IMG/VR virus record: IMGVR_UViG_3300035047_000295 | Coordinates: 1 to 40,348 of that record | Length of the DNA: 40,348 nt | Strand: one strand, 5' to 3' | Source of the DNA: a virus | Taxonomy: Duplodnaviria; Caudoviricetes | Shown: one piece after another, positions 1 through 36,422 of the stretch | Position numbering within the stretch: the first letter of the stretch is position 1 | Layout of the letters: every line of letters begins with the position of its first letter | Notes under the pieces: generated by a model | Told to the model about the DNA's origin: nothing | Database searches by the model: none | Seen by the model: the letters and a program-made list of their open reading frames with translations, nothing else | Translations under genes and position numbers: made by a program

Positions 1-315
1 GCTGTGGTAATAATCATCGTCATGGCCGTCATGCTCATATCCGTGGCCATACCCGCTTTCATATGCGTTGCAAATTTCAAAAACTCTTGTGATTGCTACC
101 ATCAATTCACCTTCCTTTCTCCCGTACTCGCCATACTTTGCTTTCATGGCACACTCATGACACATCTTATCATCAACACATTGCTGATGCGGAACATCGT
201 AGGGGCTTTGTTTTACGATCCAGTGTGCAAAAGCTGCAATAACGTCAGATCGATACAAAAAGAAAGAGCACTCTGAATACTGTTGGGATATATCCCTGTT
301 GCAAAGTAACGGCAT
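1..315 (-). CDS. Hypothetical phage protein, 3'-truncated by the window edge
   Basis: Not in the ORF track. AAGGAGG lies upstream of the ATG at 315 and the frame is open to base 1 (MPLLCNRDISQQ...NAYESGYGHGY...). Confidence 0.65.
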   Translation of the reverse strand, partial: MPLLCNRDISQQYSECSFFLYRSDVIAAFAHWIVKQSPYDVPHQQCVDDKMCHECAMKAKYGEYGRKEGELMVAITRVFEICNAYESGYGHGYEHDGHDDDYYHS

Positions 316-334
316 GGTACCTCCTTTTAACAAA

Positions 335-853
335 TTAATATAAATTCTCTGAATAGAGTCTCTTACCGTCCCCACCTACGCGGCGAAGTATCTGCCTATT
401 TTTTTTTGCTAAATTCCAGGCCTCCTCTCGGGTATAGAATTTGCCAAACTGATCCACAAATCCCTGGACTGCTTGCCCTTCCTTCGGGTAGGTGCCTCTG
501 AGGGCATCGAACATGAAATCATCAAAATGCCGGATAGATGGTATAATTCTTCCACTTGGGAACATACAGGCGGCACAGACTATTCTCGGCCCTACCGCTG
601 CAAAGGTATGTCCTAACAACCAAGTCTTTACCCAGTAAAACCATATTCCCTGCCCCCAGCAGTAGGTGTACCAGATACAGAGTATAAGGATACCCCACTG
701 CCCGTTTGCAGTTACAGTGATAAACCAGAATGGTTGCCCCAAAAAACCTAGAATAAATGCCCACCTTCTCCAGGTTTCAGGGCGGGATACAATCCAAGCA
801 GCTGGTAGGCTGAAAGCCAGAATACCAATCTGAGCTATATCTGAATTAATCAT
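335..853 (-). CDS. Hypothetical protein: Trp-rich membrane N-terminus fused to a small conserved phage domain
   Basis: Likely start MINSD at 853, overlapping the upstream stop. Hydrophobic segments are followed by RIVCAA...RHFD...QGFVDQFGKFYTREEAW...LYSENLY. Confidence 0.65.
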   Translation of the reverse strand: MINSDIAQIGILAFSLPAAWIVSRPETWRRWAFILGFLGQPFWFITVTANGQWGILILCIWYTYCWGQGIWFYWVKTWLLGHTFAAVGPRIVCAACMFPSGRIIPSIRHFDDFMFDALRGTYPKEGQAVQGFVDQFGKFYTREEAWNLAKKNRQILRRVGGDGKRLYSENLY

Positions 854-1586
854 CGATCTCGCCGTCCTTTCCCCAGGATACATCCTCGGGGTATTTGATT
901 TTAAATGGAAAACCCTCCTGCTTAGAGAGTTCGAAATCCGGGCCCAAACATCTTTTAGGAATAAACATAGACCTGGGTTGCTTGCGTTCTTCGTAAAGTA
1001 TACACGCAAACATCGCAGCTTCCCGCGCCTCAGATGGAGTGAACTCTGCCTGATGAATTAGCCCCTCTATAGCATCTACCAGCCTTCGGTACTTTGAGTC
1101 GTTTTGGTATTTTTCTTGAGGTGTTTTCATAACAGAACTTGAGGTATGAAATTGCGCCCATAGCAGTAAGGGGCATTTCAGTGGATCTTGTGCTTTGTCT
1201 TCCTCTTGCTTTTCACCTCTTTCTTCCGGCCAACCGGGACTCAAAGCAGATACCTCGATCTCCGTAGAGAAGACATCCCCCTCTGTGAAGTAACATACAC
1301 AGAACCCCTTGTGCTGTAATTGTGTAGTTGCCAAGACGCGCTGCCCATGGTACTTATGAAACTTCTGCAGACCTGACGGCTGATTTATCCAATATCTTTG
1401 CATTCTGTGCCCCTCCTTACTGGGGGTTGAGTCTCTTTTTTCCAATTCTTTAGCGTGAGCCCCATAGATATCCAAACCACGGATACCGTACTCTGTCGTT
1501 ATGTATCGGGGGTTTTCCTTAAATTTTTTACACCTGCGCTCGTACATACTTTCGTCATAGGCTATTGCAGCTATCATGTCTGACAT
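846..1586 (-). CDS. Hypothetical protein, apparently several small modules fused in frame
   Basis: GAGGAG RBS upstream. An internal AAGGAGG+ATG precedes MQRYWINQPS, and a further module begins MKTPQEKY. Confidence 0.6.
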   Translation of the reverse strand: MSDMIAAIAYDESMYERRCKKFKENPRYITTEYGIRGLDIYGAHAKELEKRDSTPSKEGHRMQRYWINQPSGLQKFHKYHGQRVLATTQLQHKGFCVCYFTEGDVFSTEIEVSALSPGWPEERGEKQEEDKAQDPLKCPLLLWAQFHTSSSVMKTPQEKYQNDSKYRRLVDAIEGLIHQAEFTPSEAREAAMFACILYEERKQPRSMFIPKRCLGPDFELSKQEGFPFKIKYPEDVSWGKDGEIDD

Positions 1587-1790
1587 GCCTTTTTCTCCTC
1601 TATTTTATACCCACGTAATTTATTGCAGAGATCAGTACCACATAATCTTCCATAGGGTGGAGCCCAATTGTCCTTCACTGCCTGTCTCCACTCTTCTGCA
1701 AAGAAACATCAATGTCATCTAAAGACACACCGCATTCCATGGCGTATTCTCTGGCACTGTTGGTTTTTTGAATCAATTCTTTTAAGGTCA

Positions 1791-2030
1791 TTATTCATCC
1801 TCCCCCTTTTCCGGAGTAACCCTTATTTTGTATTTTTTGTTGCCAAGCTGAACAACTTTTTCCGATCCTTTTGGGGCGTCGTGCATCATATGTCGAACCA
1901 ATGCCGACATGACATCTGCCTCTGCTTAGCGCTTGTCCAGCGCCATGGCAGGGTCCTTTACATGCCTATACAGAAAGATAGTGTCCGTAAGAGGCGAGTG
2001 TCCGATTTTTATTTTATTTAGATCCATCAT
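1791..2030 (-). pseudogene. Small phage protein interrupted by an in-frame TAA
   Basis: GGAGGT RBS. Reads MMDLNKIKIGHSPLTDTIFLYRHVKDPAMALDKR*AEADVMSALVRHMMHDAPKGSEK...GEDE, with the stop at 1926-1928. Confidence 0.6.
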
Positions 2031-2063
2031 ACCTCCCTCTCCCGCGTGTCAGATGCGCAGCCC

Positions 2064-2121
2064 CTGTAATACGCACATCACTGGTGCGGCCCTTTGCATC
2101 CAGTGTATGAGCTGATTAGCT
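2064..2121 (-). other. attC-like recombination site A (AAT/ATT core)
   Basis: Minus strand AGCTAAT-CAGCT-CAT(A)CAC-TGG(A)TGC-loop-GCACCA-GTGATG-TGCGT-ATTACAG, immediately after a stop codon. Confidence 0.7.
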
Positions 2122-2124
2122 GGT

Positions 2125-2394
2125 TTATTCCGCATTTTTGACAGCATGTAAATGGGCAATAAAATCGCTCAAAACATCCCTAAGTTTGATAGCTTTATTT
2201 ATAAAATCTTGCTCGGAATCTTCATACGTTCGGTGCAGTCTAATACCGTTATGGCAATCCTTTACTTCGATAAAAGAATCTCTTACTTCTTCCATACCAT
2301 CTTTATATTTAAGTGGTCCATCGTACACCGAGACAGATCCTGTTGAAGCTGATTCTGTAGAATTTAACCAAACCTTTTGTACATATTTTTTCAT
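2125..2394 (-). CDS. Hypothetical cassette-borne protein
   Basis: AGGAGG RBS before MKKYVQ; bounded by attC-like sites. Confidence 0.75.
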   Translation of the reverse strand: MKKYVQKVWLNSTESASTGSVSVYDGPLKYKDGMEEVRDSFIEVKDCHNGIRLHRTYEDSEQDFINKAIKLRDVLSDFIAHLHAVKNAE

Positions 2395-2454
2395 CTTCCC
2401 TCCTGATAACCGGCTGGGCCGGTTCATTAATTTATTAGCAAAGGGTTATCCCGG

Positions 2455-2505
2455 AGCTAATGTGGACATAACCGGCGTTAGTCCGGGTTAATGTCTTGAT
2501 TAGCG
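2455..2505 (-). other. attC-like recombination site B (AAT/ATT core)
   Basis: Minus strand CGCTAAT-CAAGA-CAT(T)AAC-(C)CGG-ACTAACG-CCG-GTTATG-TCCAC-ATTAGCT. The gene's TAA stop lies in the first box. Confidence 0.7.
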
Positions 2506-2781
2506 GTTAACATCAAGCAAGTGCGCAACTCCACATATTTTTCGCCCACTATAACGCTCTTTGTTGTACAGATCTGCCAACCATTCAGCCTCTTCCTTGC
2601 TAGTGCAGGCTGTAAACCTCCATCCACCTTTACCCGCGGTATGGCAAATGTTTTGCCCCCGCTTTAACACGATCCACAAATTTGCCCTGTCTTTTAACTT
2701 GGCCCAATCGTTTGATTTCTCAATGTTCCCTGCTTCGCACTCGAAACCACAGCTTTCAATTTTGTCTATAAAAGTTTCCAT
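2500..2781 (-). CDS. Hypothetical cassette-borne protein
   Basis: AAGGAGG RBS; 93 aa ORF between attC-like sites. Confidence 0.75.
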   Translation of the reverse strand: METFIDKIESCGFECEAGNIEKSNDWAKLKDRANLWIVLKRGQNICHTAGKGGWRFTACTSKEEAEWLADLYNKERYSGRKICGVAHLLDVNR

Positions 2782-2844
2782 TTCCTTCCTCCTTATAACC
2801 GGCTGGGCCGGTTCATTAATTTATTAACAAATGGTTTATCTCAG

Positions 2845-2909
2845 AGCTAATGCAAAGTTGAGCGGTGGCCCGGCTTTTTGTGCCACCCGTCTCTAACTTT
2901 TTATTGGTG
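2845..2909 (-). other. attC-like recombination site C (AAT/ATT core)
   Basis: Minus strand CACCAAT-AAAAA-GTT(A)GAG-(A)C(G)GGTGGC-loop-GCCACCG-CTCAAC-TTTGC-ATTAGCT, overlapping the gene end. Confidence 0.7.
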
Positions 2910-3345
2910 ATTCAGTTGTTTTTATGCAGCCATAGTCTTGGATATCTTCTATCCGGTTCATTATGCATGCTCCGCATAACAATCCTGCCCCTTCATTCTT
3001 GCCGTTCGGCTTGATTTTTTCCCACATATCATCAGGAACAATTAAATCTATCCCATACTTCCTACCGCAAGATTGGCAAGTGCAGCCTTCCTTTTTTGTA
3101 GGGGTCTTTATCAATCGCCACGGGCCTCCTATGCTATGCAGTTCGCCAAACTCTCTTAATCTTAAATTCTCTGTTTCTTCCAGGTTCCGCTGTAAAGCAA
3201 GGCCTAAGTTGCCATTGCCCTCAATGGTAAATGCAAAAGTATGCACAAGCCCACAGTCACAACATGCAAAATCTAATAATTCATTCTTTTTTATGTTTAT
3301 TTCGACACCTTCGCCGTCAATTATTTTTGGGTATTTTCCACTCAT
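2893..3345 (-). CDS. Hypothetical Cys-rich (zinc-binding) protein with two modules
   Basis: CCDCGLVH module, then a CTCQSC...LLCGAC module. Confidence 0.7.
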   Translation of the reverse strand: MSGKYPKIIDGEGVEINIKKNELLDFACCDCGLVHTFAFTIEGNGNLGLALQRNLEETENLRLREFGELHSIGGPWRLIKTPTKKEGCTCQSCGRKYGIDLIVPDDMWEKIKPNGKNEGAGLLCGACIMNRIEDIQDYGCIKTTESPIKS

Positions 3346-3414
3346 TTTTGTTTTCCTTGGTTCGCTCTGCGGCGCGGCCCGCAGCAGCGTTGTGATTGGC
3401 GGCGGTCATCCGCG

Positions 3415-3467
3415 AGCCAATAAGCAGTTATGCTGTTCTGTGTATCAGCCACTACCGCTTGTTATCC
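3415..3467 (-). other. Degenerate attC-like site D
   Basis: Minus strand GGATAAC-AAGCGGT...GCTG-loop-CAGC...ACTGCTT-ATTGGCT, an imperfect hairpin. Confidence 0.45.
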
Positions 3468-3504
3468 GGACAATCCGGACAATCCGGTATCCGTTTTCTT
3501 TCAG

Positions 3505-3762
3505 CTACTCAATGAACCCTGGGACTCTGGCATGACAGACATATGCCTCGCAGGATTCGCGGTCATTACCTACTAAAGCTTTGCATACTATGGCATGACA
3601 AAACTCATGCTTCTGGTATTCCTGCTGGTTCTCCAATCCTCCCAGCGCATCAATCAGACCCGATACTATCTTGTCTGTTTCCGTTTTATCATAGCCAAAA
3701 ACAAAACTATCACTGTTGTTGTGCCGGTATTGTCGTAAAGCCTGTTCTAAAACCTTCATCAC
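3505..3762 (-). CDS. Hypothetical protein
   Basis: 85 aa ORF whose start overlaps the upstream stop. Confidence 0.6.
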   Translation of the reverse strand: MMKVLEQALRQYRHNNSDSFVFGYDKTETDKIVSGLIDALGGLENQQEYQKHEFCHAIVCKALVGNDRESCEAYVCHARVPGFIE

Positions 3763-4379
3763 TCACCCCCTCTCACCGCCGCCATGACAACATTATTCCA
3801 CCAGTCGGCCCATGCTTGGGCACGGGATTCTGTGCGGTGGACATTCCCAGCCATTAGCTTTTCCATATCGTATGGGCAAGCACTCCAAACACGCTTAACC
3901 ACATTCCCGTTATCGACAGAGAAATAATGAGTGCCAGCGAATGGTTCTATATGCTCCGGCCTTGGCAACTTCACCCCGCCTATGGTGATGGTTGGGTGGG
4001 CGTATGTTTCGGGTGTTGTGCGAACGTATGTCCACCAACACAGGTTACTTAAAAATCTTTGATAATCACCAACAACAGTAGAGACCTTGATTAATGTGCC
4101 AGGACCTTGCCAATATCCTCCATCCTTTGAGTACTCCACAACCTTCCCCACCAGCTTCTCAGCCTCCCGCCAATTCAGGCCGGAGAAATATTCAGGCTGG
4201 AAGGGCTGTTGTTTGCGGCGGTATTCAATATTACTAAAAAACCTTGGTGAAGTAGGATCACATGGGTTCCAGTTTTTGTTATCATCATTAGGATCACGCC
4301 ATTCCCAATATGTGTGGGCTGTACCGCCAAGGTGTTTAACGTCTTTCTCCCACTGTTTTTTAAGCTCCTCGTGTGCCAT
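3759..4379 (-). CDS. Hypothetical protein, paralogue of 19443-20048
   Basis: Likely start MAHEELKKQW. Shares PEYFSGLNW.AEKLVG, PETYAHPTITI.GV.LP and RAQAWADWW blocks with the paralogue. Confidence 0.8.
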   Translation of the reverse strand: MAHEELKKQWEKDVKHLGGTAHTYWEWRDPNDDNKNWNPCDPTSPRFFSNIEYRRKQQPFQPEYFSGLNWREAEKLVGKVVEYSKDGGYWQGPGTLIKVSTVVGDYQRFLSNLCWWTYVRTTPETYAHPTITIGGVKLPRPEHIEPFAGTHYFSVDNGNVVKRVWSACPYDMEKLMAGNVHRTESRAQAWADWWNNVVMAAVRGGE

Positions 4380-4485
4380 CTCAATTTCCTTTGTTTTTCT
4401 AATCTTAGATTTATGTTCACATACGTTGATGCTTCCTTTTGGATACTCTATGGGATTAGATTCATGCAGCACGAACCCAACCCCA

Positions 4486-4626
4486 TTATTTATTGATGAA
4501 AAATTCAACTCTCTTTGCTTTGAGTGGAATAGCAAACCTACAACGATCATACACTGTAACAATATCGTACAGTTCAAACTCTTTCTTCCAGATTGGTTTT
4601 AAGTTGTCTTGGTAATCGCAGTCCAT
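4486..4626 (-). CDS. Small hypothetical protein (46 aa)
   Basis: AAAGGA RBS then MDCDYQDNLKPIWKKEFELY...FFINK; below the ORF-track cutoff. Confidence 0.4.
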   Translation of the reverse strand: MDCDYQDNLKPIWKKEFELYDIVTVYDRCRFAIPLKAKRVEFFINK

Positions 4627-4638
4627 TTCAGTTTCCTT

Positions 4639-5283
4639 TTATGGATATATATCGTTGAAGATTACCGGCACTTTTGTTTTCAGTTCTGCCAATAACGGCA
4701 CCATCAACGCCCTAATCTGTGGATGTGCTTTTTTGGCACACCGCAGCGTAAACATATGCCGCCACTCGCGGATGTTGGCTTTGACCACGATTTCGGTTTT
4801 CAGGGAATTGGGCAGAACTTCCCTGGCTTGTTCAGGTCTCCATCCATCCTCTAATAAAGACAGATAACAACATTCAGCGTTATAACAAGCATCTAACCAT
4901 TTCAGTTCTTGTTTGGATATATTTTTAGTTCTTAATCCTTTCAAATTAATTCCGATAAGTTCATCAGAACACCACACCGGCCTGATAAACTCCATCCCGC
5001 CGTCATACTTCACATATCTCGTTGACTCCTGAGCGAAAGAACATAATCTGTGCCGCACCAGCTCATGGGTCACGCCCCTGTTGGTAATAAACCTGATAGT
5101 GATGTCTCCAAATTCAATCATGGCATGGTGGCTCCAGTCTCGCATGCGGGCCACAAATCTGGTAGCGGAATCAGATGTGATTTTGTCTTCGGATTTATAA
5201 CAGGTGCGGCCGGCCGCCTCGATGACCTGAAGCAGATTGCTCGGCAGGTTGATAATTTCATGGCTCTGGTCGATGATTTTCAT
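4639..5283 (-). CDS. thyX: Flavin-dependent thymidylate synthase (canonical)
   Basis: AGRTCYKS, HHAMIEF, the RHRx7S signature (RHRLCSFAQESTRY), AREVLPNS and ANIREWRH. Confidence 0.95.
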   Translation of the reverse strand: MKIIDQSHEIINLPSNLLQVIEAAGRTCYKSEDKITSDSATRFVARMRDWSHHAMIEFGDITIRFITNRGVTHELVRHRLCSFAQESTRYVKYDGGMEFIRPVWCSDELIGINLKGLRTKNISKQELKWLDACYNAECCYLSLLEDGWRPEQAREVLPNSLKTEIVVKANIREWRHMFTLRCAKKAHPQIRALMVPLLAELKTKVPVIFNDIYP

Positions 5284-5299
5284 TATTTTCCTTTATTCC

Positions 5300-5477
5300 T
5301 GTAAATTTAAGGTTTAGACTTAAAAATATTTTATTTTTGAGTTCATAAACAGCTGATAGAGAACTTTTTAAATATTCCTAATATATTATTATTAGGAATA
5401 TTTATACATTTTTAAATAAAGTATTTTTTGCTAAACCTTATTTTATTAAATATTTATAATAATATCAATAACTTAGA
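5300..5477. repeat. ~175 bp palindromic intergenic element, copy 1
   Basis: TAAGGTTTAG...CTAAACCTTA outer inverted repeat, internal hairpin AAATATTCCTAATA/TATTAGGAATATTT, and terminal TATCAATAACTTA. Related copies at 6731-6899 and 36220-36390. Confidence 0.85.
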
Positions 5478-6902: not shown

Positions 6903-7310
6903 TTAGTAATTAGATTCAATTCTACTCATAATTTTATCGTGTATCTTATTGTACTCGTCATCAATTGTCTCAGAAGTAATTCCTGCTCCGATTAAAATAT
7001 TCATACAAAAGCATAAAACATCAATTGCTTCTTCTTTAACATACTGAGTACTTATATAAGTTTCTTGAACAGCTTCTTTATATCCAGTTTTCCACGGTTT
7101 TGAAATTAGTTTAGAAGGAGGATGAACAAGTTCTTCTGTCAGTTCCTGAACTTCATCTGATAAATGACGTAAAGTACTCCAGAAAAATTCTGCAGTTTCT
7201 TTGATAGTCGACTCGTGTTCAATTGGAAATTTTTGTTTTCCTTTTAAAACCATTAAATTTTGAAGTTCTTCATGTTTTTTAAGAATCGATTTCATTAAGT
7301 TCCTCCACAA
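6903..7310 (-). CDS. All-alpha NTP pyrophosphohydrolase (dimeric dUTPase/MazG-like)
   Basis: DEVQELTEE, KPWK and KEEAIDVLCF motifs. The true start may be the second Met. Confidence 0.8.
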   Translation of the reverse strand: MWRNLMKSILKKHEELQNLMVLKGKQKFPIEHESTIKETAEFFWSTLRHLSDEVQELTEELVHPPSKLISKPWKTGYKEAVQETYISTQYVKEEAIDVLCFCMNILIGAGITSETIDDEYNKIHDKIMSRIESNY

Positions 7311-8187
7311 GAGTATTCCATAAATTTACAAATTTTTCTCCTCCTGACATTTCTTTTCGTTCTTTTTTGTATAAAAACCACTCAGGCTTGTATTCAAAAA
7401 TATCATTTCTGGGTTTTTCAGGCATATAAATGTTAGAACTACGACCAGTGGGAACTGTTTGAACATAGAAAGAATCAGGTCGATTTACATCTATCATATT
7501 TTTTATAAATGGATATTTTTTAACAATTTCAATCCACATCTGTAAAGCAATGATATTGTCTGATTCAGGCTGAATTTGACGATCAATTCTTTGACGAATA
7601 AAATGAAGAGCATCTTTAATATTTACTCTACAATAATAATGATTTTCTAAACATCGAGGAAGAATTGTTCTTGCGTCAAGAAGAGAAACTTCATTTGAAT
7701 CAACCATATCTGCGTATAATTGTTTTGCCATTGAAACAATTTGCACATATCTTTTTGAAAATTCTTTTGAATTAAGTATTGAATTTTTTACAAGACATGA
7801 GTCGTGTCGTAAGTCTCGATCTGCTGTACAGACAGCTGAAAATGACATTGTACGATGTCTTAAAAGATGAGTTACATCTACAAGATCAATATTTGAAATA
7901 AGAAAGACTAAACCAATTGTTTCCATAGCAGAAGGCAGTAAATTTCCTTCAAAAAGATCTTTTAAAATTTGAAGTCTTTCTTCGTCTGAATACTCATCAT
8001 GAGGCTTATCTTGCCAAGTAGCAGTCCCCCATCTTGGAATGTACTCAAGAAGATCTTCAATAGAAGGTGCGTTAAGTAATTCAACAGAAATTATTTCAAG
8101 ATGCTCAAAAAAGTAAGTAACTGGAACTTCAAAATTTTTAATTTGTACTGGTAATTTAATATCAGGTAAATTTTCATTTACAGGCAT
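7279..8187 (-). CDS. Divergent ThyX/Thy1-fold protein
   Basis: THLLRHRTMSFSAVC (signature Ser replaced by Cys), ARTILP and NIKDALHFIRQR. Confidence 0.8.
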   Translation of the reverse strand: MPVNENLPDIKLPVQIKNFEVPVTYFFEHLEIISVELLNAPSIEDLLEYIPRWGTATWQDKPHDEYSDEERLQILKDLFEGNLLPSAMETIGLVFLISNIDLVDVTHLLRHRTMSFSAVCTADRDLRHDSCLVKNSILNSKEFSKRYVQIVSMAKQLYADMVDSNEVSLLDARTILPRCLENHYYCRVNIKDALHFIRQRIDRQIQPESDNIIALQMWIEIVKKYPFIKNMIDVNRPDSFYVQTVPTGRSSNIYMPEKPRNDIFEYKPEWFLYKKERKEMSGGEKFVNLWNTLVEELNEIDS

Positions 8188-8199
8188 TAGTTGTCTCCT

Positions 8200-8493
8200 T
8201 TATTTTCCTTTATGTATTTCTTTTATCTGACGTACAATAGTAGAAACTCTTTTTGCATATCCAGAAAGATCAACCCAGGAGTCATGATGAGTGGGAGTTA
8301 CTGCGATTCGAACTATTTTTATTAAAATATGTAAAATACAAATTTCGTAGAATTTTGGCATTTCTTTTCCATGCTCTTCTTGATACCTTTTAAGAATTAA
8401 TTTAAGAAGATTTGAAGTTAAATCAATTCCTTTTTCAAAATCTCCGTAAATTATAGATCTTTCATCAAGAGTTTTCGTTACATGATCGTTCAT
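8200..8493 (-). CDS. DUF6378-like protein
   Basis: TLDERSIIYGDF...KIVRI...HHDSWVDLSGYA pattern. Confidence 0.75.
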   Translation of the reverse strand: MNDHVTKTLDERSIIYGDFEKGIDLTSNLLKLILKRYQEEHGKEMPKFYEICILHILIKIVRIAVTPTHHDSWVDLSGYAKRVSTIVRQIKEIHKGK

Positions 8494-9037
8494 ATTGTTT
8501 TAATTCCTTTTTTAATTCATTTATTCGTCTTTCTGTCTCAATACGTATTTTAGAAATATTTTTATTTCCAAGAGAAATTTCATTTAATACATATTGATTT
8601 ACTTGTAAAACGTCTGCGTAATTAACAACGAGACCTTCTACTAAATTTGAGTTAAAAATTTGAACTCCTTCAATTACAGCTTTTGGATATTTTTGAATTT
8701 CTTTTTCTTCTGCAAGTTGAATTTCTTTTGCAAGATTTTTATGTTTAAATTTAACTTCATGAGTAATATCACTTAAATCAGCTTCAGTAATATCATGACT
8801 AATAGCTGCTTGTAAAGCTTTTCCTAAATCGAATATATACTTATCGTAAAGTTTTAATACAATTGCTGCTACAAAAAAAGAATGTTGAGCAACATCTTCA
8901 TTTCTAACACGTATTATATTAGTATATCTATTTATAAACGAAAGTTTATAAATTTGTGTATAGTATTCAGATAAGCACATATGTCTTGTTTTTGACAAGT
9001 ATTCTTCTAAATTATTAAAAGATTTCAAAGATTTCAC
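8465..9037 (-). CDS. HD-domain nucleotide phosphohydrolase (YfbR/DatZ-like)
   Basis: INRY...EDVAQHSF...HDITEADLSDI...YAD. Confidence 0.88.
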   Translation of the reverse strand: MKSLKSFNNLEEYLSKTRHMCLSEYYTQIYKLSFINRYTNIIRVRNEDVAQHSFFVAAIVLKLYDKYIFDLGKALQAAISHDITEADLSDITHEVKFKHKNLAKEIQLAEEKEIQKYPKAVIEGVQIFNSNLVEGLVVNYADVLQVNQYVLNEISLGNKNISKIRIETERRINELKKELKQYERSCNENS

Positions 9038-9462
9038 TCAATTTCTCCTTTGTATTCGATATATCTTACAAATCCGTCTTTTATAACATTTTGAAGAGAA
9101 AATTTAAGCAATTCGAATGAAGTACAAACTTGTTTTGCAGTTTGACTTAGCATCAGATTAAACGGACCTTCGCCGCCAGGCCAGTAGTAAATAAGTGGAA
9201 TACCAATACTATAAGAAAATCCGCATTCGAATAACGTGCCCATGTCCTTATCTACTGTTGAAGCAATAACTAAGTTACTGTTAGTTATTTGTTTAATATT
9301 TTCTTCAAATACTTCTTGTGGATTTGTTTTTCCTTTTATGTACAAAAAATCATCTTTTGGGCTGTAAACTTGAAGCTCTGCAAATTTACACGCATCAAGT
9401 ATTTGTATACGTGCTTTTTCTTGCTCTTTCCCCCACCATCCCGAAGCTACGTACGCTCTCAT
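9034..9462 (-). CDS. Nucleoside 2-deoxyribosyltransferase / nucleotide N-hydrolase family protein
   Basis: YVASGWW, YSPKD, DMGTLFECGFSY.IGIP and NLML. Confidence 0.85.
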   Translation of the reverse strand: MRAYVASGWWGKEQEKARIQILDACKFAELQVYSPKDDFLYIKGKTNPQEVFEENIKQITNSNLVIASTVDKDMGTLFECGFSYSIGIPLIYYWPGGEGPFNLMLSQTAKQVCTSFELLKFSLQNVIKDGFVRYIEYKGEIE

Positions 9463-9483
9463 TTTGTCTCCTTTTATCTTCTT

Positions 9484-11199
9484 TTAATGAAACGTCCACA
9501 CAGGTCCTGCATCGTATCCGTGCGGCATCGGAATTTCTGGGTCAGCTAACTCAGAAATTACGTATTTCCAAGCATCTACCATGCATTCACTTAATCTATT
9601 TCCCCATTTTTCAGTTTCTTCTTCTTTTGCAAGTAAAATATTAGAATCATGAATTGTATTTATTAAACACGCTTCGTAATCATCTTGCAAAATATGTTTA
9701 ACTTTTTGTAACTCAGGATATCTACTATAAAGAAGACCTATAGAAACTTTTGTTACTTCAACTGAAGATCCTTGAATTGGAAAGTTCAAAGAATCAGGAA
9801 TTGAATAAGTTCTAATTCGTCTACCCAATGCAGTCTCAATATCAACGTATCCAAATACATTAAATTGATACTTATGCATATCATGCCAAACTGTAAAACC
9901 TTCATATAATTCAAACCACCTATTCATTAATCGTTTTACTTCTTGAAAAGGAAGATCTAAATTTGCTTGAAGTTTTAGCATAGATTGAACTGTTTTTACT
10001 CCAACTCCGTAAATTAATCCGAAATTGAAGGTTTTAGCTATAGTACGATCTTCATAAGAAATATCTTCTTTTTCAAAAACGTACTTAGCTGTTTCAGTAT
10101 GCATATCTGCGCCAGATTTCATCATTTGAGCCATTACTTCTTCTCCTGTAAAAGCAACAGCCATTCTTAATTCAATTCCAGAGTAATCTTTATACACAAT
10201 TCTGTACTTATCCGGAGCTTCAACAATATCATGTAAAGAATTTGGTATTTGCTGTAAATTCACATGATCGTATCTATTTCCGCCTGTGCATGAAAATCTA
10301 CCTGAAAGAGCTGCGCAAGGATTGAAAAATCCCTTAATAACAGGTCTATCATACGCTTTCAAATACTCAAGAGACTTAAAAAATGAACGAGCATCAGAAA
10401 TTCTTTTTGCTCTTTCATTGCCTTCTTGAGCCATTTCTAACAAAACATCATGAGCAGAAGACTTTGAGTTTAAATAAATACAACATTGTTTAGAAGATCT
10501 AACGTTTAGATCAGGTGGAAGTTGTTTAAATGTGTCTTCTAATTTTTGTACGTATTCTTTTTTTAACTCAAGAACTCTATTTTGATTGACAGGCATACCA
10601 TTTCTTGCGTAATTTACAGCATATTTTAAATTATTTATGTCTAAATTATAGACAGTTGAAGTTTTAAATTCTTTGACGGATTCGTATAGTTTAGCTAAAT
10701 ACACTACGTCAGCAGCTGCGTACGTTAGTTGTCGATCAGAAAGAGCTCCCGACCAATCACTTTTTTGCTCTTCTTTTTTATCAATTCCGTCAATTAAAGA
10801 ATCAGAATTATTAGAGTACTTTAAACACTCATAAAATCCGAATTTTTGTTTTGTAAAATACTTTAAACGAGAAAGATAAAGAGTATCATCTAATTCTTTC
10901 GGAAGCCAAGTTTCTTCTGTTTTTAAATTAATTGTATGAAGATCAAAACTTCCGTTGTGAAAAATTAAATGATGTGGTTGAAGTAAATTTAAAACTTCAT
11001 TTAAAGGTATAAAAAAACAATCAATTACAACAGCTTTTTTCCATGTTGATTGAAAAATCTGAAATAATCTGATTTTCCCGTACAGCCCGCCTGAAGATAA
11101 ACCCTCATCCTCCGTTGTCTCTGTATCACAGAAAACAGGAAGATGAGGGTCTACAGAGATTTTGCGGAAAATCTCAAGATCTCTTATAAGATCGTGCAT
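9484..11199 (-). CDS. polA: Family A DNA polymerase with 3'-5' exonuclease
   Basis: Exonuclease motifs DTETT, HNGSFD and YAAAD; GRFS; NLQQIP; motif A DYSGIELR; motif B KTFNFGLIYG; motif C IHDS. Confidence 0.95.
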   Translation of the reverse strand: MHDLIRDLEIFRKISVDPHLPVFCDTETTEDEGLSSGGLYGKIRLFQIFQSTWKKAVVIDCFFIPLNEVLNLLQPHHLIFHNGSFDLHTINLKTEETWLPKELDDTLYLSRLKYFTKQKFGFYECLKYSNNSDSLIDGIDKKEEQKSDWSGALSDRQLTYAAADVVYLAKLYESVKEFKTSTVYNLDINNLKYAVNYARNGMPVNQNRVLELKKEYVQKLEDTFKQLPPDLNVRSSKQCCIYLNSKSSAHDVLLEMAQEGNERAKRISDARSFFKSLEYLKAYDRPVIKGFFNPCAALSGRFSCTGGNRYDHVNLQQIPNSLHDIVEAPDKYRIVYKDYSGIELRMAVAFTGEEVMAQMMKSGADMHTETAKYVFEKEDISYEDRTIAKTFNFGLIYGVGVKTVQSMLKLQANLDLPFQEVKRLMNRWFELYEGFTVWHDMHKYQFNVFGYVDIETALGRRIRTYSIPDSLNFPIQGSSVEVTKVSIGLLYSRYPELQKVKHILQDDYEACLINTIHDSNILLAKEEETEKWGNRLSECMVDAWKYVISELADPEIPMPHGYDAGPVWTFH

Positions 11200-16687: not shown

Positions 16688-17050
16688 TTACAAATCCTTT
16701 ATTTTTAATGTTGGCATAGAAGGGGACATCGTTACTGCTTCTCTTAAAATCGCTGTTTCAGGCAATTTTTTGTACTCACGAAGTTTAAGAGCGGGTTTAA
16801 AATTAAGTGCATTCTTTTCTTCATCAGAAAGATCTGGAAAAATTTGATCAACAACACGTTCATCTAATTTAAAAGAAACACCCTGAACAGCTTCGATTTC
16901 AAGACCTTCATATTCGAACTTATTTTTGCAGGGTGGAACTTTTGATTTAAGAAACTCTCCGCAAAGCTCTCTTCGTAATTTAGCCTCCTTTTCTTTAAGA
17001 TTTTTTAAATCATCACTCATTTTTCTCCACTGAATTAACTTTTCAATCAT
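16688..17050 (-). CDS. Hypothetical coiled-coil protein of the recombination module
   Basis: GGAGG RBS before MIEKLIQW; abuts the Sak4-like gene. Confidence 0.7.
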   Translation of the reverse strand: MIEKLIQWRKMSDDLKNLKEKEAKLRRELCGEFLKSKVPPCKNKFEYEGLEIEAVQGVSFKLDERVVDQIFPDLSDEEKNALNFKPALKLREYKKLPETAILREAVTMSPSMPTLKIKDL

Positions 17051-17945
17051 GATAGTTTTGTAACCTCCAGTACTTTGGTGTGCAATAATCACACGTTATG
17101 TTATTTAGATTAGTTAACTTTTTTGTAGTTAAAAAATCCATTGAATCTTTATCGATGTTTCCGAGCAAAAGTTCAGGAAAAAGTTCTTGACCAATTTCTC
17201 CGCCAGCCATACAACACGGATATACATCTCCATTTATTCTAATGTATAATGATTTTGAGTTAACTGAACATGAAGACATTTTTTTGTACTTCTGGTTAAT
17301 GTATGTAAAATTTACTGAATTCATATCAAGAATATCTAAAAAACAAGATATTCTGTAAGATTCATCATAAGATAAAATAGGAGAGTTATAATCAATTGAG
17401 GGAAAAATATTAAAAATATACAAAAAATCAACATGATTTTTAACAAATTTCACTAAATCAAGAGCATGTTCTTTTAAATAGTTTACATTCTTCCCACTTA
17501 CAATAGTATAATTAAAAATTAGAGTATTAAAATACTGTAAACGTCGTAGATTATTGCATAACAGTTCGAATTTTTTGACATTGTAAAATTTTTCGTACTC
17601 ATCGTAAACTGCAAAAAGAGAAACTCTTAAAATGTCAGCTAATGAAGTATATCGTATCACTTCAGGATCTGGGGACAAGAGAGTTGTTGTAATATCAAGT
17701 ACAATATTTGTCTTCGTTTTTATGTAGAACATCATATCTATGATATCAGGATGAGTTAAAGGATCATTTCCAGCAAGACGAATTTGATTGAATCCGTTTT
17801 CAATAAGTTTATCGACTCGAGAAGTAAATACGTCGAAGTTAATTTTTTCATGTGGTTTTTTATGAATATCGCACATTACACAGTTACAAAAGCATTGATT
17901 CCCAACTTCAAGATAAGCAATTTTATTGGTATTTATATTACTCAT
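17043..17945 (-). CDS. Radical SAM protein with SPASM/Twitch-like C-terminus
   Basis: CFCNCVMC (CxxxCxxC), GNDPL and YIRINGDVYPCC...LGNI...CDYC. Confidence 0.88.
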   Translation of the reverse strand: MSNINTNKIAYLEVGNQCFCNCVMCDIHKKPHEKINFDVFTSRVDKLIENGFNQIRLAGNDPLTHPDIIDMMFYIKTKTNIVLDITTTLLSPDPEVIRYTSLADILRVSLFAVYDEYEKFYNVKKFELLCNNLRRLQYFNTLIFNYTIVSGKNVNYLKEHALDLVKFVKNHVDFLYIFNIFPSIDYNSPILSYDESYRISCFLDILDMNSVNFTYINQKYKKMSSCSVNSKSLYIRINGDVYPCCMAGGEIGQELFPELLLGNIDKDSMDFLTTKKLTNLNNITCDYCTPKYWRLQNYHD

Positions 17946-27583: not shown

Positions 27584-27799
27584 ATGATCTTTTATTACCG
27601 ACTTTGTTTACCGATTCGTCTTTTTGATTTTTATTTCTTTCCTCGAACTAAGTCTTTTCCACTTAATCCACTTAAACATAGGCAGTGGACAATTAAAAAT
27701 TGTCTCAAAGTCGTTCGTTCATTTTGGTTTCGTTTAATGCATCACAAGTCAGGTTGGGTAGCTCGTTCTTTAGCTAAAAAGAAAGGAAAAAGAGTATGA
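27584..27799 (+). CDS. Basic hypothetical protein
   Basis: AAGGAG RBS; ATGA overlap with the next gene. Confidence 0.55.
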   Translation: MIFYYRLCLPIRLFDFYFFPRTKSFPLNPLKHRQWTIKNCLKVVRSFWFRLMHHKSGWVARSLAKKKGKRV

Positions 27800-28332
27800 C
27801 CACTACGACTGAAATTTCAAATCTTCTTTCTCTTTTTTCATATAATCCACTTTCTGGAAAGTTTTACAACAAGCACAATCAAGAAATTGGGACAAAAACA
27901 AAAAGAGGCTACGTAGTTATTCATTTGAATAAAAAACTCTATTATGCTCAGATTTTAGCCTATCTTCACCAAGAAGGTCATTTTCCTAAACATTTTTTAA
28001 CTTTCAAAGATGGAAATCCGCAAAATTTACGGTACTCCAATATAGAAGAAGTTTCTAAAACTTGTATAGCTCGTAGAATAACTCTACGTTCTACAAATAC
28101 ATCTGGAGTCACTGGAGTCACTTTTTGCAATCAAACAGGAAAGTGGAAAGCGTATATTTATGTTAACGGAAAAAATCGATATCAAGGTCGATACGATTAT
28201 TTTGAAGAAGCTGTAATGGCTAGATATTTAGCTGAAGAAAAATATGAGTTTTTAAAAGACAATCCTAATTCAACGGCGGCTACATATGAATACAGAGAAA
28301 CCATTGAAACAATTGACCCAATCTCGGCTTAA
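27796..28332 (+). CDS. HNH-like endonuclease with AP2-like domain (catalytic His apparently lost)
   Basis: YNPLSGKF, FKDGNPQNLRYSNI, NTSGVTGV, KWKAYI and EEAVMAR. Confidence 0.8.
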   Translation: MTTTTEISNLLSLFSYNPLSGKFYNKHNQEIGTKTKRGYVVIHLNKKLYYAQILAYLHQEGHFPKHFLTFKDGNPQNLRYSNIEEVSKTCIARRITLRSTNTSGVTGVTFCNQTGKWKAYIYVNGKNRYQGRYDYFEEAVMARYLAEEKYEFLKDNPNSTAATYEYRETIETIDPISA

Positions 28333-28816
28333 AGAACTTTTAGAGTACAACCAACTTACAGGTGAATTTATTCACAAAACAGGAAAACACAAAGATAAAG
28401 TAGCAGGTTGTATTCAAAAGAAATCTGGCTACGTACTTGTAGGCATTAATAAAAAAAAATATCCAGCTCATCGTTTAGCTTGGCTTTACATGGAAGGCTA
28501 CTTTCCACTTGGATTTGATGTAGATCATAAAGATCGAATCAGACATCATAATGAGTGGAAAAATCTTCAACTTAAAACAAGATCTTGCAATTTGAAAAAC
28601 AGATCTCCTCGTAAAGGCACAATTCCCGGAGTCTCGTCAAAAGGAGACAAATTTCAAGCGTACGTTAACGTAAATGAAAAAAGAGTTCATCTCGGAACAT
28701 TTGATCTGTATTCAGATGCAGTTCTAGCTCGTTATGAAGCTGAACTAAAATTTTACTCAAGTTGTCAAGAGCACTCTTTAGCTGAAAAATATCTTCAAGA
28801 ACAGGGATTGATCTAA
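28286..28816 (+). CDS. HNH homing endonuclease with AP2-like domain
   Basis: LTQSRLKELLEY, AHRLAWLYMEG, VDHKDRIRHHNEWKNL and HLGTFD...AVLAR. Confidence 0.88.
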   Translation: MNTEKPLKQLTQSRLKELLEYNQLTGEFIHKTGKHKDKVAGCIQKKSGYVLVGINKKKYPAHRLAWLYMEGYFPLGFDVDHKDRIRHHNEWKNLQLKTRSCNLKNRSPRKGTIPGVSSKGDKFQAYVNVNEKRVHLGTFDLYSDAVLARYEAELKFYSSCQEHSLAEKYLQEQGLI

Positions 28817-33573: not shown

Positions 33574-34431
33574 ATGACTTCTTATTTTATGAATAAAGGA
33601 GTTTTTAAATCTGCTGAAGAAAACACAGAAACTTATAAACAGTTCGTAGAAAGCTCTTTGTACAAAAAAGTTGATATTCCTTTTATTACAGTCTCTATTC
33701 CGGTCTACAAATCAAAAGGATTATTGAGAATAGCTGTAAAATACATTTTAAGACAGACTTATCCAAAATTTGAACTTCTTGTAGTTTCTGACGCAGATCC
33801 TGATAACTCAATCAATGAGATACGAGATTTAAATGATTCTCGTCTTAAGATCATCGAGCTTGAAGAAAACATCGGAAGATACGCAATTGATCACTTAGTT
33901 GTAAATGATCTTTCAAACGCTGATTATTGGGTTCCAGTCGATTCTGATGATTGGTGTTCAGAAAACTATTTAACGACTCTTGTTCATCGACTTCTTAAAA
34001 AACCCGACTCAGACGTAATTTTTGCTGCGCAGTATGTTCAGATAAACTATAGTAAAAGAGTACAACGAATTAAAGAGTGGAATGGAACTGATGAATTAAT
34101 CTGGCATGCTCACATGTCAGCTCTTTGGAGACGAGAGTTCTTAATCGAGTACAATTTGACAAATCCGAACTTTAGAATAGCTTGGGACTCAATTATAACT
34201 TCAGTCCCGTGGCTAGTAGGAAACGTCGACTATACGCAGTCTGCAATGTATTACAGGGTCAAACGTTCAGATTCTTTGACTTCAGCAAAAGAGACGTGTT
34301 TTGGTTCTGATTGCAGAAATCGTGCAAAAGCTTATTTAATCGAGCTCTGGAAAGAACTTGTGTATAATAAAGATGACAAAGAAAAAATTAAACAAATTTT
34401 AAAAAGGAGTAGAAATGAACAAATTTGGTAG
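33574..34431 (+). CDS. Glycosyltransferase family 2
   Basis: ITVSIPVY, ILRQTYPKFELLVVSD, ENIG and VDSDDW. Confidence 0.9.
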   Translation: MTSYFMNKGVFKSAEENTETYKQFVESSLYKKVDIPFITVSIPVYKSKGLLRIAVKYILRQTYPKFELLVVSDADPDNSINEIRDLNDSRLKIIELEENIGRYAIDHLVVNDLSNADYWVPVDSDDWCSENYLTTLVHRLLKKPDSDVIFAAQYVQINYSKRVQRIKEWNGTDELIWHAHMSALWRREFLIEYNLTNPNFRIAWDSIITSVPWLVGNVDYTQSAMYYRVKRSDSLTSAKETCFGSDCRNRAKAYLIELWKELVYNKDDKEKIKQILKRSRNEQIW

Positions 34432-35626
34432 CATCGACTTCGTAAAATCTCAAGTCGGAACAAAAACACCTTGGGCTATAACTCCAGATGCACTTGCTGA
34501 GATTGACTACAGACTTCACGTTAAACAACCTAAAGTTGTTTTAGAGTGCGGTTCTGGACTTTCTACTGTTGTGCTGGCAAACTACGCAAAAAGCAATCCA
34601 GAAGCTACTGTGATTTCTTTAGAGCACGATTTGAAGTACTTTGAACGAACTTCAAATTTACTCGGAAACTTGAAACAAAATGTAAATCTAGTGCATGCAC
34701 CTCTTGTAGGAACTCCTCCTATTTACGAAGTGGATTTGTATAAATTTCCAAGAATTGACTTCGTTTTGATCGACGGTCCCCCAACAGGCGAAGGAGGGAG
34801 GAGTAGAATTTTTGACTGGTTGTTCACGTATTTAAATGATGAGTACGAAATTTGGCTAGATGACGGAAACAGGAAAGAAGAGCAAGAAGCTGCAATAAAG
34901 TGGAAAAATGAGTATAATCTAAATGTAAATTATACTAAGATTCAAAAAGGACTTATAATTCTTACAAACTATCTTCCTGAGCACTTTGTTCCAAGAATGA
35001 ACGATGTAGTTGTTACAATGCTTTCTGGAGCTCGTCATGAACTTTTAGATCGAACTCTTTCAAGTCTTCCAGATTACATTTTAAATGAAATAATCGGACT
35101 TACAAATGGAGGAGATCAAGAAACAATTGAAGTATACAAAAATTATGGCATCGATCCGATTATTACTCCGTATCTTTTAAAAACTGGTCAATCGACTTCT
35201 TTTTTAGCACATCTCGCATTTGAGTCTAAAAAAGAGTACTGGTTGCAATTACAAGACGACTGGGAATTTGTAAGCGAAGATGAGTTATGGTTAGAACGAT
35301 CAAAAAAAGCTTTAGAAGAAAGTCATCAAGTTCGTTTACGTCATTTTAGCGATCCTGTTCTTACTCGACATATGTATACAAACAAGCCTTTTAATCTTAA
35401 AAGCACTAAATTTGGAAAACTTGGAGAAATGCACTGGACATTTAACCCTACTTTACAAAAATGTAAGCATATACCTAATGTGTATCCTGCTAAGGGAGAG
35501 AGATCTGCTCAAAAGAACGCATACGAATCAGGTAAAAAATTAACTACTCAATTATACCCGGGCTGCTTTTTTCATATCGGCTGGGAAGATTCTCTAGAAG
35601 TTAGAGTCGGAATGCGATCTAAATAA
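34415..35626 (+). CDS. Class I SAM methyltransferase fused to a GT-A-like glycosyltransferase domain
   Basis: VLECGSGLST, SLEHD, LIDGPP and LDD; C-terminal LDRTLSSL, LQLQDDWEF, TFNPTL and HIG. Confidence 0.8.
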   Translation: MNKFGSIDFVKSQVGTKTPWAITPDALAEIDYRLHVKQPKVVLECGSGLSTVVLANYAKSNPEATVISLEHDLKYFERTSNLLGNLKQNVNLVHAPLVGTPPIYEVDLYKFPRIDFVLIDGPPTGEGGRSRIFDWLFTYLNDEYEIWLDDGNRKEEQEAAIKWKNEYNLNVNYTKIQKGLIILTNYLPEHFVPRMNDVVVTMLSGARHELLDRTLSSLPDYILNEIIGLTNGGDQETIEVYKNYGIDPIITPYLLKTGQSTSFLAHLAFESKKEYWLQLQDDWEFVSEDELWLERSKKALEESHQVRLRHFSDPVLTRHMYTNKPFNLKSTKFGKLGEMHWTFNPTLQKCKHIPNVYPAKGERSAQKNAYESGKKLTTQLYPGCFFHIGWEDSLEVRVGMRSK

Positions 35627-36390: not shown

Positions 36391-36422
36391 CCGAATCATT
36401 GTTAAACACAACGGAGCCGCAT

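Follow-up and report, generated by a model that had tools for sequence, protein, structure and literature searches.

A conserved phage gene module centred on a divergent ThyX-fold protein, a candidate pathway to a modified DNA pyrimidine

The known pre-replicative pyrimidine substitutions of phage DNA use synthases of the ThyA fold, and the text of PMC8989533 that deals with the flavoenzyme ThyX treats it solely as a methylase. In canonical ThyX, His53 stacks on the pteridine of the folate (PMC11940539), R174 activates deoxyuridine monophosphate (dUMP) via N3 deprotonation, and S88, R90 and Y91 help methylene transfer, the S88A, R90A and Y91A variants being slow in methylation; reduced ThyX also captures free formaldehyde as a flavin carbinolamine and uses it (PMC8316439). 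Phage SP-15 carries two Thy1 genes (PMC5977210), it forms its dihydroxypentyluracil (DHPU) ahead of DNA synthesis, and its Thy1 protein gp130 has been hypothesised to be a hydroxymethyluridylate synthase (PMC5977210, Kropinski et al.). Measured over deoxythymidine (dT), the linkers of SP-15 and Carin-5 add 88 Da and that of YerA41 adds 104 Da (PMC12686479; PMC13697223), and a report on Carin-5 states that its pathway has not been deciphered (PMC12686479). Here we describe a module of nucleotide-metabolism genes, centred on a divergent ThyX-fold protein, in a stretch of 40,348 nucleotides (nt) from a virus of the Caudoviricetes, analysed at its full length and hereafter called the window (IMG/VR virus record IMGVR_UViG_3300035047_000295, positions 1 to 40,348). 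It should be noted that the window is a linear virus record that is 78% complete, which bounds all gene absences reported for it below.

The module lies on the minus strand and begins with a family A DNA polymerase carrying a 3'-5' exonuclease (PolA; 9484-11199; PF00476, E 1e-35, and PF01612). This is followed by an NDT-family N-deoxyribosyl enzyme of the nucleoside type (9034-9462; PF05014, E 9e-12), an HD-domain YfbR-like hydrolase (8465-9037; PF12917, E 2e-15), a small helical DUF6378 protein (8200-8493; E 5e-8), a divergent ThyX-fold (Thy1-like) protein of 302 amino acids (aa; 7279-8187; PF02511, E 2e-16) and an all-alpha MazG/dimeric-dUTPase-like pyrophosphatase (6903-7295; PHROG 173, E 2e-6, with Pfam dUTPase_2 at only E 0.09), whose probable start is the ATG at 7295, the longest open reading frame (ORF) beginning with the TTG at 7310. 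The original prediction, made from the letters alone, had named these six families, their tight head-to-tail packing behind the polymerase and a ThyX-fold protein in the slot of the synthase; all of this is confirmed, by the coordinates and family profile matches, by intergenic gaps of 21, -4, -29, 12 and -17 nt in the order given, and by the Pfam match together with a fold comparison of an AlphaFold model. AGGA/GGAGG-type sites precede all five small genes, and promoter and terminator scans of the window gave results at chance level. The grouping of the genes is not due to chance, since 52 non-redundant loci show these genes around the ThyX-like gene.

The AlphaFold model of the divergent protein (predicted local distance difference test score 94.6) has the ThyX fold, with a Z score of 17.2 and a root-mean-square deviation of 3.2 Å over 211 residues aligned to 3gwc, and its top fold matches include PolB, a ThyX of a nucleoside pathway. 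On the ThyX model TIGR02170 (cut-off 87.9 bits) it scores 43.1 bits, below the cut-off, and the canonical ThyX also encoded in the window scores 113.5, above it. Residues were mapped through a profile alignment to Thermotoga maritima ThyX and not from superposed coordinates; the changed positions were scored in the 72 of 75 locus groups in which the motif was scorable, and invariance was assessed over 70 full-length proteins. The family motif reads RHRxxSFSAxC[TS][AG]D[RK]. The RHR flavin motif and the equivalents of R147 (R173) and of T. maritima R174 (R200) are kept, R110, R112, R173 and R200 being invariant in 70/70 proteins. The folate-stacking His53, by contrast with these, has become Leu (70 proteins) or Val (2), Gln75 is His, Glu86 is Ala and Ser88 is Cys (Cys120 in the window protein) in 72/72, Arg90 is Ala or Gly in 71/72, and Tyr91 is Asp in 70/72; an Arg or Lys two places further on might substitute for the lost R90. 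The canonical window copy and four canonical copies of relatives retain His53 and S-x-R-Y, three others being unscored for want of a pattern match. Because the uracil-activating Arg is kept and the folate-stacking His53 and the S-R-Y loop are lost, we infer that the divergent protein is a flavoenzyme that has retained pyrimidine nucleotide binding and altered its donor site. No fusion of the synthase was found among proteins of 665-2000 aa, which is weak evidence, the range of 530-664 aa not having been searched. In databases the divergent proteins go under the name 'thymidylate synthase ThyX'.

Of 862 candidates, 194 are related to the divergent protein at E <=0.001, and the best 120 of these share 45-73% identity with it. 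Its sole match among 50,697 phage records is Geobacillus phage GR1 (44% identity), the only carrier in culture that was found. Scanning for the pattern yielded confirmed stretches in viral contigs (253), metagenomes (179) and 185,579 prokaryote genomes (3); with the best 80 stretches kept from each of the first two sets, 165 loci were grouped into 75 at 85% identity, and 52 of these, including the window, have at least 1.5 kb upstream and at least 1.2 kb downstream and were counted, the other 23 being dropped. A nucleotidase lies within 5 kb of the synthase in 52/52 loci, as an HD protein in 44 and as an NT5C/HAD protein in 8 (9 before a false match, a dUTPase domain, was removed) and never as both, and an NDT gene in 50/52 (49 plus L076, where it was masked by the ORF filter). 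Other partners are less constant: a pyrophosphatase occurs in 32/52 loci, a P-loop gene of the deoxynucleoside monophosphate (dNMP) kinase type in 28/52, fused to the NDT in 14, a dCMP deaminase within 10 kb in 16/52 and an epimerase in 5/52. The adjoining polymerase is PolA, of two types, at 21 of the 75 loci and PolC at 28, so that the dedicated polymerase envisaged earlier is not borne out. Since synthase, NDT and nucleotidase co-occur almost constantly while polymerase type and gene order vary, the conserved unit consists of these three genes, with the polymerase as backbone, and this core recurs in unrelated PolA and PolC phages. The survey of the neighbourhood called for by the original prediction thus bears out its conservation. 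The pairwise identities of the three core genes correlate with rho 0.32-0.50, which we do not accept as a co-evolution signal, as it reflects shared descent.

The NDT of the window keeps the catalytic pair Y4 and E79 together with the 5'-hydroxyl (5'-OH) pocket formed by D73 and N102 (N102-x-M104); D73 is present in 58/58 and N102 in 57/58 module NDTs, and the best match in the PDB is a nucleoside enzyme (6evs, E 1.5e-21, versus E 0.002 for DNPH1). Monophosphate N-glycosidases (MilB/DNPH1/DmtZ) have a small uncharged 5'-phosphate pocket in place of the Asp/Asn 5'-OH binders (PMC12884076), and the suggested analogy to MilB and DNPH1 is ruled out by these retained residues. The acid/base Asp is replaced by Asn (Asn55) in 57/58 module NDTs, as it is in the hydrolase/transferase DmtZ and the transferase TbPDT (PMC12884076). 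We propose that the NDT releases 2-deoxyribose. The HD protein matches YfbR (and OxsA) at E 3e-15 versus E 9e-7 for DatZ, and the site of the DatZ signature W20-x-I22 reads R37-Y38-T39-N40, which departs from it; across the family this site holds Tyr in 51 of 55 proteins, followed two positions on by Asn in 29 and Thr in 9 (Thr or Ser in 11). The HD protein is likely a 5'-deoxynucleotidase, a monophosphatase role also suggested by its being swapped for NT5C/HAD nucleotidases in 8/52 loci. HD followed by NDT reads as a route from dNMP through deoxynucleoside to base and deoxyribose, the reverse of salvage; the salvage NDTs of 4/5 annotated control phages adjoin deoxynucleoside kinases or transporters.

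Among the remaining partners, DUF6378 (15/52 loci) and the P-loop kinase (28/52) are never found together (0), and in L009/L091 versus L011 they occupy the same slot within the same gene order, an exclusion that is confounded by lineage. A comparison of DUF6378 with the Atlas matched only DUF6378 or unnamed clusters, and the PHROG label 'phosphofructokinase' was not accepted for it. A third small family (about 90 aa, PQYGD motif) sits in the DUF6378/kinase slot at L069:9676-9945 and L073:9649-9939. The MazG-like enzyme likely converts dUTP to dUMP. In a branch of large phages (L050, L075, L078, L079, L081) the synthase is surrounded by a dUTPase-like/NT5C fusion, a NAD-dependent epimerase/dehydratase and an Fpg glycosylase. 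The earlier analogy to 2-aminoadenine (dZ) phages, which pair PurZ with DatZ and a dedicated polymerase, does not hold: apart from the HD protein being closer to YfbR than to DatZ, the PolA reaches 75.3 bits on DpoZ_2, where the cut-off is 350, and PurZ is absent from the window and from 28/29 relatives (0/14 complete ones carry it). One relative has an adenylosuccinate-synthetase-family gene (PurA or PurZ) some 77 kb from the module (G014:C1:86344-87234). As for the other absences first asserted, those of PurZ, QueC and ThyA stand for the window, which also shows no PurA or dCMP deaminase, and that of QueD and QueE was not followed up, these not having been searched as families.

The window also encodes a canonical ThyX (4639-5283, minus strand; His53, RHR and QESTRY intact), which the original prediction had overlooked. 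It lies 2 kb from the divergent copy in a higher-GC stretch, the GC content of the window climbing from about 0.30 to 0.42-0.47 left of about 5 kb (window 1-5350). The full window DNA is contained in four oil-field metagenome runs, possibly its source, and no RNA run is listed among those that contain it. Contigs of the four runs cover the module piecewise, none of those listed joining the canonical ThyX to the ligase; the linkage of canonical ThyX and module rests on this assembly and on parallel cases in relatives. Coverage of the 5' portion of the canonical thyX is much higher in other runs, and loose ends occur at 5283, from which it follows that related thyX copies occur in other contexts. 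A second, canonical ThyX is found in 6/29 relatives (3/14 near-complete ones) and a ThyA in one more. The retention of a canonical ThyX and the continued avoidance of GATC in many relatives speak against the wholesale removal of canonical bases that had been proposed.

Several lines connect the module to phages with hypermodified thymidine. SP-15, YerA41 and Carin-5 each have a divergent ThyX and an NDT; in SP-15 the NDT (gp127), a short-chain dehydrogenase/reductase (SDR; gp129) and Thy1 (gp130) stand together, with an HD nucleotidase as gp90. Relatives of gp130 occur in Carin-5, GXN1, YerA41, GN1, phiXF1 and three Vibrio phages, and an NDT is encoded in all seven gp130-type genomes opened, adjoining the synthase in Va2, phiXF1 and 1.031.O. 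Streptococcus phage GXN1 has NDT, HD and ThyX-like genes in the order of the window, beside an SP-15-type synthase, and its NDT (134 bits) and HD protein (174 bits) are full members of the module families, control NDTs scoring 28-76 bits. Asn occupies the acid/base position in 9/9 cultured NDTs linked to a ThyX-like protein (seven gp130-type, LIS04 and GR1) and Asp in 10/10 controls. In an unrooted tree with 7 controls, built on the window, GR1 and a random draw of 28 of the 58 module rows, the linked NDTs fall on one side with 97/97 support. The NDTs of T-modified and related phages have been missed elsewhere: YerA41 gp86 (L167:10380-10916) is annotated as a mannosyltransferase, that of GXN1 (L166:11986-12477) is unannotated and that of Carin-5 (L176) is mis- or unannotated.

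From the genes, their linkage, the fold, the residue changes, the co-occurrence with a canonical synthase and the shared NDT signature, all of which are observed, we infer every enzymatic activity discussed here. The idea that the cluster produces a modified pyrimidine ahead of replication, and that its synthase is the ThyX-fold protein, thereby gains real, if partial, support, owing to the conserved module, the rebuilt active site, the separate canonical synthase and the links to T-hypermodified phages. We consider it probable that a non-canonical pyrimidine dNMP of some kind enters the phage DNA. As to its identity, we offer tentatively, as the foremost candidate and yet a proposal that may well fail, that the ThyX-fold enzyme reductively joins 2-deoxyribose to C5 of dUMP; besides the evidence just named, this draws on the formaldehyde carbinolamine precedent and on a mass match. 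The HD protein would dephosphorylate deoxynucleotides and the NDT would hydrolyse the nucleosides, freeing 2-deoxyribose; N5 of the reduced flavin adenine dinucleotide (FAD) would trap the aldehyde in its open-chain form, giving a carbinolamine like the one that ThyX makes from formaldehyde; once activated by the retained Arg200 (T. maritima R174), C5 of dUMP would displace the flavin, and elimination and hydride transfer would give 5-(3,4,5-trihydroxypentyl)-dUMP. The MazG-like enzyme would provide dUMP from dUTP, a kinase would lift the modified dNMP to the triphosphate, and dTMP would still come from the canonical ThyX, so that substitution of thymidine would be partial. The adduct (dU plus 2-deoxyribose plus H2 minus H2O) has a computed mass of 346.138, +104.047 over dT, nominally that of the YerA41 linker, with ribose at +120.04 and a dihydroxypentyl group at +88.05 as computed alternatives. 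In the fullest form of this proposal, which is doubtful, a folate-independent ThyX-fold carbon-carbon ligase of a widespread phage family, supplied with 2-deoxyribose that a dedicated nucleotidase-NDT pair cleaves from deoxynucleosides of the cell, would join this sugar reductively to C5 of a pyrimidine nucleotide to yield DNA with bare 5-(3,4,5-trihydroxypentyl)uracil in small phages, and a second ThyX lineage would make the YerA41 linker (104 Da) and, after one deoxygenation, that of SP-15 and Carin-5 (88 Da). Ribose label reportedly enters DHPU, judging by the title of a 1978 paper.

A number of observations weigh against the deoxyribose proposal. A direct relationship between the module synthase and SP-15 gp130 was sought and not found: hhalign gave a probability of 38% over 60 columns, the module synthase profile returned no gp130 match, the gp130 type ranked 16 in Foldseek on viral models, a quick tree showed no sister relation between the two, and the gp130 type keeps Ser/Thr88 and Arg90 (by eye), which module synthases have lost. 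With three cellular controls added, support for the NDT grouping falls to 90/59 (93% of bootstrap trees) in an unrooted tree of 10 controls and 14 module rows drawn at random, in which the second halves of tandem NDTs were left out. Most SP-15-type NDTs score 62-101 bits on the module profile, overlapping the controls, and Asn at the acid/base position is shared with the transferase TbPDT. A dedicated SDR as the switch between the 88- and 104-Da linkers failed, as SP-15 gp129 is closer to a YerA41 SDR (32%) than to Carin-5 gp58, and the nominal mass of 104 fits any C4H8O3 isomer. Two relatives that are 100% complete and carry the same synthase motif (G016, G019) have no NDT anywhere in the genome; host nucleoside catabolism could supply the sugar in such relatives, which is an added assumption. 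In these two genomes an FAD amine-oxidase-fold protein from a large unnamed viral cluster, together with a HAD protein, fills the NDT slot (L053:8579-9454, L062:6228-7121).

Restriction-site avoidance, measured as observed over expected counts of 4-mer palindromes in the 36 module loci of at least 14 kb, with a ratio below 0.3 taken as strong avoidance, gives no support for protection of the DNA and some evidence against the deoxyribose proposal. SP-15 (49 kb) has 2 GC-only palindromes versus 53 expected and YerA41 has 1 versus 5, T-containing palindromes being near expectation in both. The window is flat and avoids nothing (GC-only 142 observed/140 expected; other classes 984/987 and 1449/1417), and the signal is also missing in Carin-5 (GC-only 12/15). 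Strong avoidance of GC-only sites occurs in 0/36 module loci, and the ratio for GATC is <0.3 in 15/36 and >0.7 in another 15/36; GATC falls to <=0.05 of expectation in 5/10 near-complete relatives, and likewise in the module-less control PH1. These word counts argue against full or bulky substitution of T in many members and slightly favour a cytosine target, a small base or no modification. Likewise, GR1 DNA was Illumina-sequenced and amplified by polymerase chain reaction, with no difficulty reported in the part of the description that covers this work (PMC10237291), and glycosyltransferase family 2 (GT2) genes are found in only 4/29 relatives (0/14 complete ones); given both, most module phages are unlikely to have a bulky glycosylated base. 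GR1 itself encodes a thymidine kinase and has an annotated glycosyltransferase inside the module. Two glycosyltransferase-type genes of the window (33574-35626, plus strand), not remarked on before, encode a GT2 glycosyltransferase and then a protein of 403 aa whose N-terminal domain is Methyltransf_24 and whose C-terminal half looks GT-A-like by eye; their products could decorate DNA or the virion. A survey of restriction-resistant contigs found NDT enriched with a YfbR-type HD protein and PolA, not beside PurZ, and describes an HD motif Y20-T/S22 and an NDT that acts on purine deoxynucleosides (bioRxiv 2025.10.22.683976). The HD family of the module shares the Tyr (51 of 55) but two positions on has Asn more often than Thr or Ser (29 versus 11); the restriction-resistant contigs may include the module family, judging from the part of the preprint concerned, and are not counted here as support.

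The same word counts suit a synthase that modifies C5 of dCMP, with Cys120 as the covalent nucleophile and a one-carbon or deoxyribose-derived donor, and with canonical ThyX and dCMP deaminase supplying dTMP as in T-even phages, an explanation we regard as unlikely. In its favour are the loss of Arg90, the invariant Asp at Tyr91 and the invariant Cys at Ser88, the switch of ThyA enzymes to dCMP by an Asn-to-Asp change (PMC13326640) and the dCMP deaminase of 16/52 loci. The equivalent of R174, which deprotonates uracil N3, is nevertheless invariant, the ThyX-fold enzymes among the fold matches act on (d)UMP, the GATC pattern is shared by the module-less PH1, and the NDT links lead to T-modified phages. 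A short ThyA-like gene adjoins the synthase in 12/52 loci, in one case fused to a kinase, a dCMP-type neighbour that counts against the deoxyribose proposal as well as for this alternative, although it also suggests that cytosine is handled by another protein. Those that follow the synthase are found in one PolC branch and have Cys together with Asp in the N177 slot, a signature of dCMP enzymes (PMC13326640; bioRxiv 2024.12.05.627091), and they possibly make a second, cytosine-directed modification. Examples are the short ThyA-fold proteins at L137:3726-4328, L158:11039-11947 and L146:2280-3344, which show HCF/PCI Cys, MRS[CN][DN] and an Asp in the N177 slot; several ThyA-like proteins have Asn at D169, a proposed mark of 5-hydroxy-dCMP synthases.

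It is also improbable, to about the same degree, that the module merely manages nucleotide pools, with an aberrant but working thymidylate synthase, with NDT, HD and MazG-like enzymes that rebalance or sanitise, and with canonical DNA. In 22/29 relatives no other canonical synthase was seen, GATC is strongly avoided in 15/36 loci and GR1 DNA behaves normally (PMC10237291). The closest cultured PolAs (about 31% identity) adjoin annotated thymidylate synthases, and the three nearest annotated PolA relatives examined have these but no annotated NDT or HD gene. One module-less PolA relative (L227, MW202744; 8459-12272) has two thymidylate synthases, MazG and dCMP deaminase around its polymerase, like 5-methylcytosine (5mC) phages. 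Such an enzyme is, however, hard to reconcile with the family-wide loss of His53, Arg90 and Tyr91 in favour of new invariant residues, and with 43 bits on TIGR02170 (cut-off 88) versus 113.5 for the canonical copy of the same genome; and module NDTs sit with a nucleotidase, whereas 4/5 control salvage NDTs sit with kinases or transporters.

Still less probable is a flavin-dependent dUMP hydroxymethylase, or another one-carbon transfer without reduction, accompanied by HD, NDT and MazG-like enzymes that destroy dTMP, thymidine and dTTP, as accessory enzymes do in SPO1-type phages. The hypothesis put forward for SP-15 gp130 (PMC5977210) agrees with it, as do the accessory enzymes (deaminase, nucleotidase, pyrophosphatase and kinase), and the easy sequencing and persisting avoidance of GATC suit a small base, but the folate-stacking His53 is lost in 72/72 proteins and destruction of dTMP clashes with the canonical ThyX of the window and 6/29 relatives and with the thymidine kinase of GR1. 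A free modified base or nucleoside acting on the host outside DNA is very improbable: the genes can be read in the MilA/MilB order of nucleoside antibiotics (synthase, nucleotidase, N-glycosidase), PolB is among the top fold matches and the missing relief from restriction-site avoidance would be explained, but the module sits in a replication block and includes a dNMP-kinase-type gene in 28/52 loci, NDT-fused in 14.

The minus-strand replication block of the window comprises AAA/Sak4, a DUF669 single-stranded DNA-binding protein, exonucleases, helicase, PolA and ligase, and terminase and portal genes lie at 37.5-40.2 kb. A Radical SAM/SPASM protein within the replication block (17043-17945, minus strand) has a relative in the same block of L005/L089 and is not part of the core. 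Two tandem HNH endonucleases (27796-28816, plus strand) precede the primase, and an endonuclease VII-type gene (36399-36902, plus strand) precedes the terminase.

In the literature searched, which did not include most subscription papers, we found no demonstration of a ThyX-fold synthase of a non-canonical DNA base and no published description of the module, so that its absence from print is not established. At least 75 distinct lineages, drawn from three collections, carry the module, and GR1 offers a cultured carrier that is easy to handle. If the deoxyribose proposal were true, it would provide a route to the DHPU of SP-15, known since the 1970s with its biosynthesis unsolved, and to the linkers of YerA41 and Carin-5; it would represent a new flavin chemistry, the reductive C-alkylation of a nucleobase by a sugar aldehyde, and the annotation 'thymidylate synthase ThyX' would need correcting.

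Comparison with described systems shows partial likeness to four of them. With the dZ cluster (PurZ, DatZ, MazZ/DutZ, DmtZ, DpoZ) the module shares the combination of synthase, HD protein, pyrophosphatase and NDT beside PolA, and Asn at the acid/base position as in DmtZ; unlike that cluster, the window has no PurZ, its HD protein has Y38-T-N40 and not W20-x-I22, its NDT has a 5'-OH and not a phosphate pocket, and its PolA is not DpoZ. ThyA-type substitutions (T4 5-hydroxymethylcytosine, Xp12 5mC, RB69 5-hydroxycytosine, SPO1 5-hydroxymethyluracil) likewise rely on a thymidylate-synthase paralogue making a modified dNMP, surrounded by kinase, pyrophosphatase and deaminase, but in them the paralogue has the ThyA fold, whereas here it has the ThyX fold and an NDT belongs to the core. 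Canonical ThyX (T. maritima TM0449, M. tuberculosis ThyX, S. cacaoi PolB) agrees in fold, RHR motif and R147/R174 equivalents; the window protein differs in its longer chain (about 300 aa), its six active-site changes and its score below the TIGR02170 cut-off, and it travels with NDT and nucleotidase. The SP-15-type systems have a divergent ThyX with an Asn-type NDT, an HD nucleotidase (SP-15, GXN1 and Vibrio 1.031.O), a second canonical Thy1 in SP-15 and, in GXN1, the NDT and HD families and gene order of the module. Their synthase is of another lineage (about 410 aa, Arg90 kept), they are large myoviruses with sugar clusters and polymerases fused to uracil-DNA glycosylase, and SP-15 and YerA41 avoid GC-only palindromes, whereas the module group does not. 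On the sequence features compared, the module and its proteins thus do not belong to canonical ThyX, the dZ cluster, the MilB/DNPH1 glycosidases or the gp130 family. The module is real, conserved and uncharacterised; in its working it resembles the substitution of pyrimidines ahead of replication, and it has parts in common with SP-15-type hypermodification.

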